From NCBI RefSeq assembly GCF_058153355.1, contig NZ_CM177019.1: a stretch of DNA of 64,000 nucleotides. The stretch is one strand, 5' to 3'. Positions 13,299-37,234 of this stretch are shown here, one piece after another (positions within the stretch are counted from its first letter, which is position 1; each line of letters opens with the position of its first letter). The notes below the pieces were generated by a model. That model worked only from the letters and a program-made list of their open reading frames with translations, was not told the DNA's origin and made no database searches. The position numbers and the translations under genes are program-made.

Positions 13299-13425
13299 TA
13301 ATTTCAGTATTTTCAGAAGGATAATTAATCCTTCTCCGTGTACGAACGGTCCCCTTGCCCCTCTGTGGAGAAGGTTAGGGGAACCCGTTGGCACAGGTTT
13401 GTACAACGTAACAGTACAATATGAA

Positions 13426-31701: not shown

Positions 31702-31736
31702 TCGTTTATCAGACAAGCATCACTTCAGAGGTATTT

Positions 31737-32630
31737 ATGGCAACGAATTTACGTGGCGTAATGGCCGCACTCCTGACTCCTTTTGATCAACAACAAGCAC
31801 TGGATAAAGCGAGTCTGCGTCGCCTGGTTCAGTTCAATATTCAGCAGGGCATCGACGGTTTATACGTGGGTGGTTCTACCGGCGAAGCCTTTGTACAAAG
31901 CCTTTCCGAGCGTGAACAGGTACTGGAAATCGTCGCCGAAGAGGCGAAAGGCAAGATTAAACTCATCGCTCATGTAGGTTGCGTCAGCACTGCTGAAAGC
32001 CAACAGCTTGCATCTTCAGCCAAACGTTATGGCTTCGATGCCGTCTCCGCCGTCACGCCGTTCTACTACCCTTTCAGCTTTGAAGAACACTGCGATCACT
32101 ATCGGGCAATTATTGATTCGGCGGATGGGTTGCCGATGGTGGTGTACAACATTCCGGCGTTAAGCGGCGTTAAACTGACCCTGGATCAGATTAACACTCT
32201 GGTTACGTTGCCTGGTGTCGGCGCGCTGAAACAGACCTCTGGCGATCTCTATCAGATGGAGCAGATCCGTCGTGAACATCCGGATCTGGTGCTCTATAAC
32301 GGTTACGACGAAATCTTTGCTTCTGGTTTGTTGGCGGGCGCTGATGGTGGTATCGGTAGTACTTACAACATTATGGGCTGGCGTTATCAGGGTATCGTGA
32401 AGGCGCTGAAAGAAGGCGATATCCAGACCGCGCAGAAGCTGCAAACCGAATGTAATAAAGTCATTGATTTACTGATCAAAACGGGCGTATTCCGCGGCCT
32501 GAAAACGGTCCTGCACTATATGGATGTCGTTTCTGTGCCGCTGTGCCGCAAACCGTTTGGTCCGGTCGATGAAAAATATCTGCCAGAACTGAAGGCGCTA
32601 GCCCAGCAGTTGATGCAAGAGCGCGGGTGA
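31737..32630 (+). CDS. nanA: N-acetylneuraminate lyase
   Basis: 297-aa [53 protein letters not shown]... Confidence 0.95.
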
Positions 32631-32738
32631 GTTGTTTCCCCTCGCTCGCCCCTACCGGGTGAGGGGAAATAAACGCATCTGTACCCTACAATTTTTATAC
32701 CAAAGCGTGTGGGCATCGCCCACCGCGGGAGACTCACA

Positions 32739-34229
32739 ATGAGTACTACAACCCAGAATATCCCGTGGTATCGCCATCTCAACCGCGCACAATGGCGCGC
32801 ATTTTCCGCTGCCTGGTTGGGATATCTGCTTGACGGTTTTGATTTCGTTTTAATCGCCCTGGTACTCACCGAAGTACAAGGTGAATTCGGGCTGACGACG
32901 GTACAGGCGGCAAGTCTGATCTCCGCAGCCTTTATCTCTCGCTGGTTCGGCGGCCTGATGCTTGGCGCTATGGGCGACCGCTACGGGCGTCGTCTGGCAA
33001 TGGTTACCAGTATCGTTCTCTTCTCGGCCGGGACGCTGGCCTGCGGCTTTGCGCCAGGCTACATCACCATGTTTATTGCTCGTCTGGTCATCGGCATGGG
33101 GATGGCGGGAGAATACGGCTCCAGCGCCACCTATGTCATTGAACGCTGGCCAAAACATCTGCGTAACAAAGCCAGTGGCTTTCTGATTTCCGGCTTCTCG
33201 GTGGGTGCCGTCGTTGCCGCTCAGGTCTACAGCCTGGTGGTTCCGGTCTGGGGCTGGCGAGCGCTGTTCTTTATCGGCATTTTGCCAATCATCTTTGCTC
33301 TCTGGCTGCGTAAAAACATTCCGGAAGCGGAAGACTGGAAAGAGAAACACGCAGGTAAAGCACCAGTACGCACGATGGTAGACATTCTTTACCGTGGTGA
33401 ACATCGCATTGCCAATATCGTAATGACGCTGGCGGCGGCTACTGCGCTGTGGTTCTGCTTCGCTGGTAACCTGCAAAATGCCGCAATCGTCGCTGTTCTC
33501 GGGCTGTTATGTGCCGCAATCTTTATCAGCTTTATGGTTCAGAGTACGGGCAAACGCTGGCCAACGGGCGTAATGCTGATGGTGGTTGTGTTATTTGCTT
33601 TCCTCTACTCATGGCCGATTCAGGCACTGCTGCCAACGTATCTGAAAACCGATCTTGCTTATGACCCGCATACTGTTGCCAATGTGCTGTTCTTTAGTGG
33701 CTTTGGTGCGGCGGTGGGGTGCTGCGTCGGTGGCTTCCTCGGTGACTGGCTGGGAACCCGCAAAGCGTACGTTTGCAGTCTGCTGGCCTCACAGCTGCTG
33801 ATTATTCCGGTATTTGCGATTGGTGGCGCAAACGTCTGGGTGCTCGGTCTGTTACTGTTCTTCCAGCAAATGCTTGGACAAGGGATCGCCGGGATCTTAC
33901 CGAAACTGATTGGCGGTTATTTCGATACCGACCAGCGTGCAGCGGGCCTGGGCTTTACCTACAACGTTGGCGCATTGGGCGGCGCACTGGCCCCAATCAT
34001 CGGCGCGTTGATCGCTCAACGCCTGGATCTGGGTACTGCGCTGGCATCGCTTTCGTTTAGCCTGACGTTCGTGGTGATCCTGCTGATTGGGCTGGATATG
34101 CCTTCTCGCGTTCAGCGTTGGTTGCGCCCGGAAGCGTTGCGTACTCATGACGCTATCGACGGCAAACCATTTAGCGGTGCCGTGCCGTTTGGCAGCGCTA
34201 AAAACGATTTAGTCAAAACCAAAAGTTAA
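32739..34229 (+). CDS. nanT: Sialic acid:H+ symporter NanT (MFS)
   Basis: Canonical start [22 protein letters not shown] inside ORF-track frame 32709-34229; 496 aa. Confidence 0.9.
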
Positions 34230-34275
34230 TCCTGTTGCCCGGTCTTCTACCGGGCCTTTCGCTAAGGGAAGATGT

Positions 34276-36298: not shown

Positions 36299-36318
36299 AA
36301 CTTAGTTCGTTTTAAAGA

Positions 36319-36346
36319 TTCTGCAGACACTGTCTGCAGAATTCGA
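36319..36346. repeat. Palindrome of the CAGAC-N3-GTCTG family (copy A), just 3' of yhcH
   Basis: ttctgcagacactgtctgcagaattc; related to the three palindromes inside yhcG. Confidence 0.6.
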
Positions 36347-36367: not shown

Positions 36368-37234
36368 CTATAGCCTTCCTCTAGCACCGCCTGTGTTCGA
36401 ACGAGTTCGGCGGTGGAAAAACAGCAGATCGACACGAAACCAGTTGTCATCAATGCGTAACCTTCGCTGCCGACCAACAAAGGCAAAATCATCCCCAAGT
36501 TCCAGCATTAAATCCATCAGGTGATTGATCAGCGCCTCCTCAAAATCGGATTCTGAGTATTCATCTTTCAATTCCAGAAATTCGAGCACAAAGGGATCGC
36601 GTATCGCCTGTTGCGGAAGAATATGCGTCTCGGCAGGAGCGTGTTGTTGCAGCATGGCTGATTTGTCATGTGACAGTAGTGTTCGCTCATAAAATTGGGT
36701 CGCAATTTGCCGCTCTAGCTGGCGGACAGACCAACCACAGCGGAGCGCCTCTTTTTCATAAAAGCTGCGGGCGTCAGCGTTTTTAACGGAAAGTAGACGG
36801 ACGTAGGTGGACCAAGGCAGGGGGAACGATTTGGCAGACAGCGTCTGCCAAATCTTTGCCGATGGGAATTCTGCAGACGGTGTCTGCGGAATTCCCAATG
36901 GTGTTAATTCGCCAGACACTGTCTGGCGAATTTCAACATGTTGAAAAAAGAGGTAAAAAAGCCTCATTTGGCGTAAGTTTTTTGCAGAGAACCCACGCTT
37001 ATACCTTAGACTTAAATCCTTTGATAGTCGCTTGATTAGCTGCGCACCATACGCAGCTCTGGCCTCGCCACCTTGTTCAAATTCGACAATTCGTCGGCCA
37101 ATTTCCCAGTACGTCGCGGTCATCAGCGCGTTAACGCTACGTACCGTTTCCGTTCGGGCGCTATCGACCAGATGAATAATGCCGTCGTGGATTTGCTGGT
37201 AGCCTGCTGTGGTTCCTTCTGAGAGCGATTCCAT
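36368..37234 (-). pseudogene. yhcG: yhcG-like DUF1016 / PD-(D/E)XK nuclease-family gene, apparently truncated near the 3' end
   Basis: 288-aa ORF MESLSEGTTAGYQQIHDGIIHLVDSARTE... runs to ...RIDDNWFRVDLLFFHRR then gives 12 unrelated residues and a stop; the following ExK nuclease motif is absent; K-12 YhcG recalled as about 375 aa. Confidence 0.5.
36830..36932. repeat. Three tandem perfect palindromes (CAGAC-N3-GTCTG cores) inside the yhcG coding sequence
   Basis: tttggcagacagcgtctgccaaa (36830-36852), gaattctgcagacggtgtctgcggaattc (36866-36894), aattcgccagacactgtctggcgaatt (36906-36932); each encodes I-x-Q-T-x-S-x-E/K on the minus strand. Confidence 0.7.

Follow-up and report, generated by a model that had tools for sequence, protein, structure and literature searches.

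A strand-specific hairpin beside a Spot 42 complementarity site in the nanA-nanT spacer of Escherichia

What does a stable palindrome do when it stands inside an operon, between the gene for a lyase and the gene for the matching transporter? The 64,000-nucleotide stretch of DNA analysed here (the window; contig NZ_CM177019.1 of RefSeq assembly GCF_058153355.1) raises this question at the nanA-nanT junction of the nanATEK operon. A first-pass annotation had described a stem-loop there and offered three readings of it: a partial attenuator, a processing or stability element affecting nanA relative to nanTEK, or a degenerate REP unit. The element is most likely a repeat-derived intercistronic hairpin of an ordinary operon-internal kind, with a presumed protective function, lying beside a probable site of a known sRNA.

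A hairpin at the 5' border of the nanA-nanT spacer

The nanA-nanT spacer is 108 nt long, the same length as in K-12 (3372575-3372682, minus strand). From 5' to 3' it comprises hairpin 1, a 12-nt Spot 42 seed site, a single-stranded linker, a second hairpin and the nanT ribosome-binding site (RBS), with hairpin 1 at the 5' edge of what is probably an intercistronic region responsive to an sRNA. The features, all on the + strand, are as follows.

31737-32630, +: nanA ORF (ORF list)
32628-32630, +: nanA stop codon TGA (ORF, sequence and fold), its U and G lying in the outermost hairpin stem
32625-32680, +: extended hairpin (hairpin 1), about 23 bp made up of an outer 5 bp, 3 bp and the 15-bp core (folding)
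32634-32648, +: core 5' arm, GUUUCCCCUCGCUCG; the site of all natural core variation, with 5/15 sites variable among Escherichia species
32649-32655, +: loop CCCCUAC (sequence; Spot 42-hairpin duplex calculation); 0/7 sites variable
32656-32670, +: core 3' arm, CGGGUGAGGGGAAAU, in which GGGTGAGGGG is the BoxC/PIT third block; 1/15 sites variable
32678-32689, +: Spot 42 complementarity site, UCUGUACCCUAC; perfect complement of Spot 42 nt 1-12 (spf from K-12)
32690-32704, +: A/U-rich linker, AAUUUUUAUACCAAA; unpaired in the minimum free energy (MFE) fold, a candidate RNase E or Hfq contact
32705-32726, +: hairpin 2, GCG-U-GUGGGC-AUC-GCCCAC-CGC (fold), directly adjoining the nanT Shine-Dalgarno sequence
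32727-32741, +: nanT translation start, with Shine-Dalgarno sequence GGGAGA (32727-32732) and ATG (32739-32741); 0/12 sites variable

The arms originally described, tttcccctc (32635-32643) and gaggggaaa (32661-32669), are exact complements, and they do lie between the nanA stop codon and the nanT RBS, 4 nt past the TGA at 32628-32630 and 58 nt ahead of the Shine-Dalgarno sequence. RNA folding, proposed at the time as a check, returned a real stem-loop that is larger than the 9-bp stem and 17-nt loop first described; the arms were retained but the loop was not, as its GCUCG pairs with CGGGU, including two G·U pairs. The core has 15 contiguous base pairs (32634-32648 with 32656-32670) and a 7-nt loop, CCCCUAC, and an outer extension of 3 + 5 bp, in which U/A pairs lengthen the stem, takes in the UG of the nanA stop codon. 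Neither this full extent of the stem nor the Spot 42 context had been part of the first-pass annotation.

The extended hairpin has an MFE of -31.6 kcal/mol, compared with -16.6 ± 2.8 kcal/mol for shuffled sequences (z = -5.35), and none of 200 shuffles was as stable. The antisense strand of the same segment reached -19.1 kcal/mol (z = -1.33), no better than its shuffles, because the G·U pairs of the sense strand become C·A mismatches; the two z-scores therefore assign the structure to the sense mRNA. At the DNA level the element is an inverted repeat with 17-nt arms, 82% Watson-Crick complementary and 7 nt apart, ninth by length among the window's 70 repeats of this short-range kind. No Rfam family matched the hairpin, the best E-values (2.1 and 3.7) belonging to irrelevant families. 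That the spacer element is a strand-specific and very stable hairpin in nanATEK mRNA is well supported.

The hairpin had been described as lacking a U-run and hence as no classic terminator, and this was borne out: its 3' tail is AAAUAAACG, and a terminator scan of both strands gave no call at the hairpin, where the tail reads AAAUAAACGCAUC. It has the GC-rich stem-loop of an intrinsic terminator (the 15-bp core, and -31.6 kcal/mol when extended) without the U-run 3' of the stem, and the scan and the missing U-run exclude an intrinsic terminator for both strands. Adams 2021 lists none of its curated Term-seq 3' ends or Rho regions at K-12 33726xx, in LB/glucose media in which the nan operon is poorly expressed; the Term-seq check suggested for the junction thus yielded no mapped 3' end in published data, from media that do not induce nan. 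The SMRT-Cappable-seq supplements have no entry for nanA or nanT, and none of the papers searched mentioned nanA and nanT together with a hairpin or attenuator. A partial transcriptional attenuator, intrinsic or factor-assisted, would suit a hairpin that is rich in GC and stands at a cistron junction with a membrane-protein gene downstream, and internal terminators that set stoichiometry occur in other bacteria (PMC9045158). Against this stand the missing U-run and the empty terminator calls on both strands, the lack of a reported Term-seq 3' end or Rho region in the spacer, the reported lack of terminator activity in PIT/BoxC elements (PMC4666352) and the occurrence of a U-run after 0 of 80 orthologous hairpins. 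With nothing in these data in its favour, the attenuator appears on sequence grounds largely refuted, and we regard it as highly improbable. Read-through of the hairpin by RNA polymerase is well supported.

Other candidates in the spacer were also discarded. A gSELEX RpoN peak has been reported for nanT/nanA; the + strand of the spacer contains no match to TGGCAC-N5-TTGCW at up to three mismatches, and a sigma-54 promoter was rejected there. Matches to the sigma-54 motif over the whole window are at chance level (314, with 337 expected). A small ORF of 27 codons (GTG 32659 to TGA 32740-32742) overlaps the nanT ATG, has no RBS and starts inside the stem; in the alignment with E. albertii it carries four non-synonymous changes and one synonymous change.

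Conservation and descent of the hairpin

Substitutions were compared among representatives of seven Escherichia species, with the four-fold degenerate sites of nanA and nanT as reference (p values are against these sites).

Four-fold degenerate sites of nanA and nanT (reference): 231/394 variable, 58.6%
nanA-nanT spacer: 15/108 variable, 13.9% (p = 1e-17)
Core stem: 6/30 variable (p = 3.6e-5)
Core 3' arm: 1/15 variable (p = 5.5e-5)
Loop: 0/7 variable (p = 0.0023)
nanR-nanA promoter/operator region: 14.6% variable
nanT-nanE spacer: 31.9% variable

The nanA-nanT spacer is thus as conserved as the nanR-nanA promoter region and more so than the nanT-nanE spacer. Within it the linker segment 32681-32704 has 4/24 variable sites, and the loop is unchanged across Escherichia except for one additional C in E. 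albertii. The linker motif AUUCAUACCAAAGCG is kept in several genera in the alignment, as is hairpin 2 in many, with a covariation score over 38 species of 0.280 against a shuffled mean of 0.190, a value that none of 500 shuffles reached.

Ten distinct natural variants of hairpin 1, drawn from the species loci and 70 metagenome contigs, were scored on the 23-pair structure. Across them 96.5% of cells are paired, 17 pairs are invariant and five vary on one side only; a two-sided change occurs at a single pair, in a position that is unpaired in seven of the ten. The four variable core positions (C to U, C to U, G to A and U to C) are all transitions, all in the 5' arm, and each keeps a standard pair. 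We estimate the chance of four such pair-preserving, one-sided transitions at about 0.02-0.1. In the search for compensatory changes proposed at the outset, pairing is kept and compensatory double changes are almost absent; a shuffle control for covariation in hairpin 1 is uninformative because its variation is one-sided.

The window is E. coli DNA: the 410 nt around the site match in 5409 of 5426 complete genomes, with nanA and nanT annotated beneath the match, and a 61-nt query of the hairpin finds a median of one place per E. coli genome (E <= 10). Purifying selection on the hairpin is well supported, and so is its occurrence once per genome, 0-4 nt past the nanA stop codon and restricted to the genus Escherichia.

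The same site was compared at nanA loci of Enterobacteriaceae and relatives, 80 species in total. nanT lies downstream of nanA in every one, with a gap of 32-403 nt, and the strongest hairpin begins no more than 16 nt past the nanA stop codon in 63, with a U-run following in none. These hairpins are non-homologous across genera, being REP/BIME, BoxC or other. The Escherichia type was confined to that genus, where it was seen in E. coli lineages, E. albertii, E. whittamii and the cryptic clades. REP/BIME-like palindromes occupy the same place in 47 species, among them Salmonella, Citrobacter, Enterobacter and Lelliottia, and the spacers of Pseudocitrobacter, Kluyvera and Enterobacter sp. kpr-6 hold CCCCTCACCC-TAA-CCCTCTCCC...GGGAGAGGG units, that is, BoxC. 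No hairpin follows nanA in two Trabulsiella loci (L046, L047) and one Enterobacter locus (L029). This distribution fits a generic role for a hairpin after nanA and also fits tolerance of palindromic insertions. Unrelated repeats (REP/BIME, intact BoxC) in the same slot of other enteric genera make it a small and tractable example of repeated palindrome recruitment.

The degenerate REP unit of the first-pass annotation was not upheld. The REP consensus (GCCGGATG...CATCCGGC / TAGGCCGGATAAGGCG type), present at this site in 47 other species, is missing from the Escherichia spacer, the hairpin is single-copy, and the K-12 RefSeq annotation has no repeat feature in the nanA-nanT spacer, which together rule out REP membership. 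A better candidate is BoxC, also called PIT or TMECO, an enterobacterial intergenic repeat with 23 copies in K-12 (Holder et al. 2015, PMC4666352), none of which lies near the nanA-nanT spacer in Table 1 of that paper. The canonical unit is CCCTCKCCC - GGGAGAGGG - GGGTGAGGG with linkers of 3-4 nt. With an nhmmer profile made of these 23 copies, the spacers at loci L009, L010 and L048 (E = 2.6e-9 to 4.9e-5) and those of Kluyvera (E = 4.5e-4 and 0.015) were recognised, while the E. coli hairpin reached an E-value of about 9.7 (6 bits, profile positions 3-23 only) and is therefore not a canonical member; the three-block unit is likewise absent from it. The flanks of BoxC copies (TGAGTT..., ...GAAACGCATC, TTCATACCAAAGCG) and their T-run/A-run borders nevertheless align to the E. 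coli hairpin, and an affine-gap alignment placed the hairpin arms, borders and flanks (TGAGTT..., ...AAACGCATC, TTCATACCAAAGCG) onto the BoxC blocks of L009 and L048, with two rearrangement histories fitting equally well. Judged by these alignments, the hairpin probably derives by rearrangement from a palindromic repeat of the BoxC/PIT type, which would make the idea of a degenerate repeat right in spirit but wrong as to the family named. If this is true and the hairpin does protect nanA mRNA, a decayed BoxC-type repeat would have been retained by selection as an mRNA element.

Such a descent raises the possibility that the hairpin is a functionless relic that landed in a tolerant spacer. The different mobile palindromes found at this site from genus to genus, and none in a few, would suit this, as would the alignment of arms and flanks to the BoxC blocks of L009 and L048 and the report that BoxC/TMECO loci are prone to rearrangement and have no promoter or terminator activity (Holder et al. 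2015, PMC4666352). It is made improbable by the low substitution rate: the spacer, hairpin included, is four-fold less variable than synonymous sites and in this resembles the operon promoter, and 4418 of 5412 E. coli genomes share a 61-nt stretch with 100% identity. The changes in the core stem, moreover, all preserve pairing, and do so on the sense strand only.

A Spot 42 complementarity site next to the hairpin and possible roles of the element

Because the spacer is conserved as a whole, partners acting in trans were sought. nanT has been published as a target of the sRNA Spot 42, by Beisel and Storz in 2011 and by Beisel et al. in 2012, according to PMC12612679 and PMC3295665. Nucleotides 1-12 of Spot 42 (GUAGGGUACAGA) are perfectly complementary to 32678-32689, a 12-mer that occurs once in the window and is invariant in the seven Escherichia species; the region I duplex has a calculated energy of -23.7 kcal/mol (z about -5). 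The site begins 8 nt past the core hairpin, lies 48-59 nt past the nanA stop codon and overlaps the last three outer-stem pairs of hairpin 1. Its end is 49 nt before the nanT AUG, and it is therefore too distant for simple occlusion of the RBS. If the seed is assumed to be the same there, Leclercia, Silvania and L079 (deposited as Enterobacter pulveris) also have strong Spot 42 sites behind unrelated hairpins, and the spacers of Salmonella and Citrobacter have none. Opening the site costs 3.0 kcal/mol with the hairpin in place and 2.0-3.1 kcal/mol after its deletion or scrambling in silico, and the hairpin was rejected as an insulator controlling access to it.

RIL-seq-derived tables of Hfq-associated RNA (Bar et al. 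2021, built on Melamed 2016) were consulted, in which the identities of interactors were decoded from summary statistics and not read directly. In these tables nanA has 106 fragments and one interactor, whose statistics (49 interactions, SIC 0.734214) are those of spf. The spacer entry nanT.nanA.IGT has 322 chimeric fragments and two interactors, and its medians of 26.5 and 0.281393 solve exactly to spf and nagE.5UTR. The tables thus appear to link spf to the nanA-nanT spacer.

Among the roles that the first-pass annotation had offered, an effect on the stability or processing of nanA relative to nanTEK is the best-supported reading, and it agrees with an analogy to galETKM. By this analogy we tentatively favour the hairpin as an exonuclease barrier that would spare a nanA-only mRNA once nanTEK has been silenced. 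In the gal operon, pairing of Spot 42 at galT-galK yields a galET mRNA through Rho and RNase E, and hairpins or duplexes at 3' ends stop 3'-to-5' exonucleases (Jeon et al. 2021, PMC8577784). In the nan operon the nanTEK segment might be lost through routine cutting of the linker by RNase E, through cleavage triggered by Spot 42/Hfq, or through Rho termination of the galT-galK kind. Exonucleases working 3' to 5' would then chew back to hairpin 1 and halt there, leaving a stable, translatable nanA-only mRNA. Lyase and transporter would thereby be expressed discoordinately, with the transporter switched off first under catabolite repression. The element has what is expected of the barrier class, namely a stable hairpin on the mRNA strand that is read through, lies 3' of the upstream cistron and is under selection for its structure. 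The loop and the 3' arm are conserved in sequence, however, and a pure exonuclease barrier needs only pairing, so an additional sequence-specific role is possible. Two further points speak against the barrier: published Term-seq, from media in which nan is poorly expressed, has no 3' end at the hairpin base, and the species of L029, L046 and L047 do without a hairpin.

Such a role might be docking: the hairpin, its A-rich 3' flank and the CCCUAC of its loop could recruit Hfq or offer Spot 42 a second, kissing seed contact, serving the regulation of nanT and not the protection of nanA. The loop, CCCCUAC, is invariant in Escherichia and includes a hexamer, CCCUAC, identical to the core of the Spot 42 site; duplex calculation shows nucleotides 1-6 of Spot 42 able to pair with it, AAUAAA stands between the hairpin and the Spot 42 site, the spacer is Hfq-associated in the RIL-seq-derived tables, and the sequence of the 3' arm and loop is conserved beyond the needs of pairing. 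We nonetheless consider docking unlikely. The hairpin has two ARN triplets only, both paired in the outer stem, and, as noted above, its removal or scrambling leaves the accessibility of the Spot 42 site the same. Leclercia, Silvania and L079 combine strong Spot 42 sites with unrelated hairpins that lack CCCUAC loops, and a hairpin is present too in genera that have no Spot 42 site. Closer to the nanA gene, the hairpin could act as a brake on translation termination, the ribosome at the stop codon having to unwind the stem, with slower release lowering NanA or leading to cleavage or trans-translation. The outer stem does include the stop codon, the core starts 4 nt past it, a comparable position is seen in 63 of the 80 species, and REPs near stop codons have been reported to stall ribosomes (Liang, Rudd and Deutscher 2015, in the summary given by PMC12306157). 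This geometry does not discriminate, because REPs generally cluster near stop codons. Stalling is reported for REPs that lie within about 15 nt of a stop codon. A literature search found no tmRNA-tagging or stalling data for nanA, and NanA is a catabolic enzyme expected in excess of the transporter, for which braking is not obviously useful; we think a brake quite unlikely.

The RIL-seq tables also bear on whether the spacer itself gives rise to a trans-acting RNA, a stable, processed and Hfq-bound fragment, capped by the hairpin, that would sequester Spot 42 or base-pair with the nagE 5' UTR. nanT.nanA.IGT always takes second place in its chimeras (SIC 0.5, k = 2, giving S = 1), as sRNAs typically do; nagE.5UTR is the solution for its second interactor, and the C-rich loop and the 5' arm are complementary to GUAGGGGGAA in the Shine-Dalgarno region of nagE. 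Yet these identities are themselves decoded from summary statistics, the sRNA score is 0.014, there is no U-tract, and Term-seq gives no discrete 3' end. Specific pairing with the nagE 5' UTR was not supported, as the duplex (-29.0 kcal/mol) is no better than shuffles (-26.1 ± 3.7 kcal/mol, 19% of them as good), and a sponge RNA seems very improbable. A broader proposal joins the hairpin and Spot 42 site in a gal-like, sRNA-operated switch at the cistron junction, with the spacer fragment as a stable Hfq-bound RNA that sponges Spot 42 or contacts the nagE 5' UTR. We give this combination little credence; if true, it would couple the uptake of sialic acid and N-acetylglucosamine at the RNA level.

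The presumed protective hairpin leaves knowledge of the kinds of element found within operons unaltered, and the finding is a useful annotation and not a surprise.

Comparison with known systems

The nan hairpin resembles REPs that stall ribosomes close to stop codons in being a strong hairpin 0-4 nt past the stop codon; it differs in not being a REP, and stalling at nanA is a proposal. Its likeness to BoxC/PIT/TMECO is closer. GGGTGAGGGG in the 3' arm is the third block of that family and is complemented by the 5' arm; both hairpin and family are palindromic and rich in C/G, neither is a terminator, and the orthologous site in Pseudocitrobacter and Enterobacter sp. kpr-6 holds canonical copies. 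In contrast to the Y-R-R three-block unit, the hairpin consists of two complementary blocks and a degenerate CCCCUAC, and it is single-copy and far more conserved than rearrangement-prone loci would be.

With REP/BIME stabilisers of the malE-malF type (Newbury et al. 1987), the element shares a stable hairpin free of a U-run, located after a promoter-proximal gene and before a transporter gene. By analogy, it would be expected to block 3'-to-5' exonucleases and so to favour expression upstream of it over expression downstream. Genuine REP/BIMEs stand at exactly this position in Salmonella, Citrobacter, Enterobacter and Lelliottia, whereas the Escherichia hairpin lacks the REP consensus, is single-copy and carries no repeat annotation in K-12.

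In galETKM, as predicted for nan, region I of Spot 42 pairs within a polycistronic mRNA at a cistron junction. The gal pairing extends over about 75 nt and covers the galK RBS, whereas the 12-nt nan site ends 49 nt before the AUG; the truncated gal mRNA is documented, whereas the nanA-only mRNA is proposed; and nan differs in having a pre-existing hairpin upstream of the sRNA site, to which we ascribe a putative protective role. If this reading is true, nanATEK would be the second natural case, after galETKM, of Spot 42 acting inside a polycistronic mRNA, and one in which a pre-installed hairpin picks the part of the message that survives, which would explain how E. coli keeps the lyase while the sialic-acid transporter is off.

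Hairpins of the nanA-nanT and nanT-nanE spacers

The 108-nt nanA-nanT spacer contains a second hairpin, and a further one lies in the nanT-nanE spacer:

32705-32726, second hairpin of the nanA-nanT spacer, GCG-U-GUGGGC-AUC-GCCCAC-CGC, directly abutting the nanT Shine-Dalgarno sequence
34237-34255, hairpin of the nanT-nanE spacer, GCCCGGU-CUUCU-ACCGGGC, 8 nt past the stop codon

The hairpin ahead of nanT is kept well outside Escherichia, being found in Raoultella, Leclercia, Siccibacter and Phytobacter and, at an offset, in Buttiauxella, with compensatory changes across these genera. Its covariation score was 0.280, whereas shuffles averaged 0.190 and none of 500 reached the observed value. The nanT-nanE hairpin carries a compensatory change of U-A to C-G in two of the compared genomes (loci L006 and L043). 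Because the nanT-nanE spacer has a hairpin too, such structures follow the stop codons of nanA and nanT alike.

A genomic SELEX study reported an RpoN (sigma-54) holoenzyme peak in the nanA-nanT spacer, at old K-12 coordinate 3,370,654, and proposed a promoter for nanTEK-yhcH. A search of the spacer for the sigma-54 consensus on the plus strand found none.

RNA ends and candidate RNA contacts of nanA and nanT

Two published RNA datasets place features near the 5' end of nanA:

approximately 31782 (K-12 3373531, minus strand), ORF-internal RNA 3' end, at a CCUUUU run
approximately 31725-31750, 5' end of nanA, region found in a CpxQ chimera

The 3' end, which is strong in the Term-seq of Adams et al. 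(2021) and falls 45 nt into nanA, may be where the nan operon is attenuated or processed close to its 5' end when it is not induced. Iosub et al. (2020) list, in the supplement to their Hfq CLASH study, the chimera that joins the cpxP 3'UTR (CpxQ) to the nanA translation-initiation region, TCAGAGGTATTTATGGCAACGAATT.

For K-12, values decoded from the summary figures in the RIL-seq-derived tables of Bar et al. (2021) suggest that nagE.5UTR forms chimeras with the nanA-nanT intergenic RNA (nanT.nanA.IGT), and that CyaR and the uhpT 3'UTR RNA are interactors of the nanT CDS. RNA crosstalk between nan and nag is possible; the predicted pairing of nagE with the nanA-nanT spacer was no better than that of shuffles.

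Possible recombination, and a deletion, in the nan operon

The 3' half of the Escherichia nanA-nanT spacer (32690-32738) was compared with the spacers of six other nanA loci (L008-L011, L028 and L048). Together with the NanT N-terminus it is nearer to Kluyvera, Pseudocitrobacter and a Klebsiella MAG than to Salmonella, whereas the NanA C-terminus is nearer to Citrobacter. These mixed affinities suggest past recombination inside the operon.

Separately, in E. coli 01G17CRGN001 (NZ_CM148329.1; locus L002) a deletion spans the entire spacer, beginning in the 3' end of nanA and reaching into the 5' part of nanT; both genes are annotated as pseudogenes.

Other palindromes and repeats

Five further elements were located in the window:

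36318-36342, palindrome of about 25 bp, downstream of yhcH
36829-36851, second copy
36867-36893, third copy
36906-36932, fourth copy
13352-13383, degenerate, truncated BoxC/PIT unit, CCCTTGCCCC-TCTG-TGGAGAAGG-TTA-GGGGAA

The four palindromes, all downstream of yhcH, share the form (A)ATTCTGCAGACA-N2-TGTCTGCAGAAT(T), and a minus-strand ORF (36368-37234) has three of them clustered ahead of it or within its 5' part. All four look like operator sites for a regulator. The BoxC/PIT unit matched a profile of the 23 K-12 copies listed by Holder et al. (2015) with an E value of 0.03.
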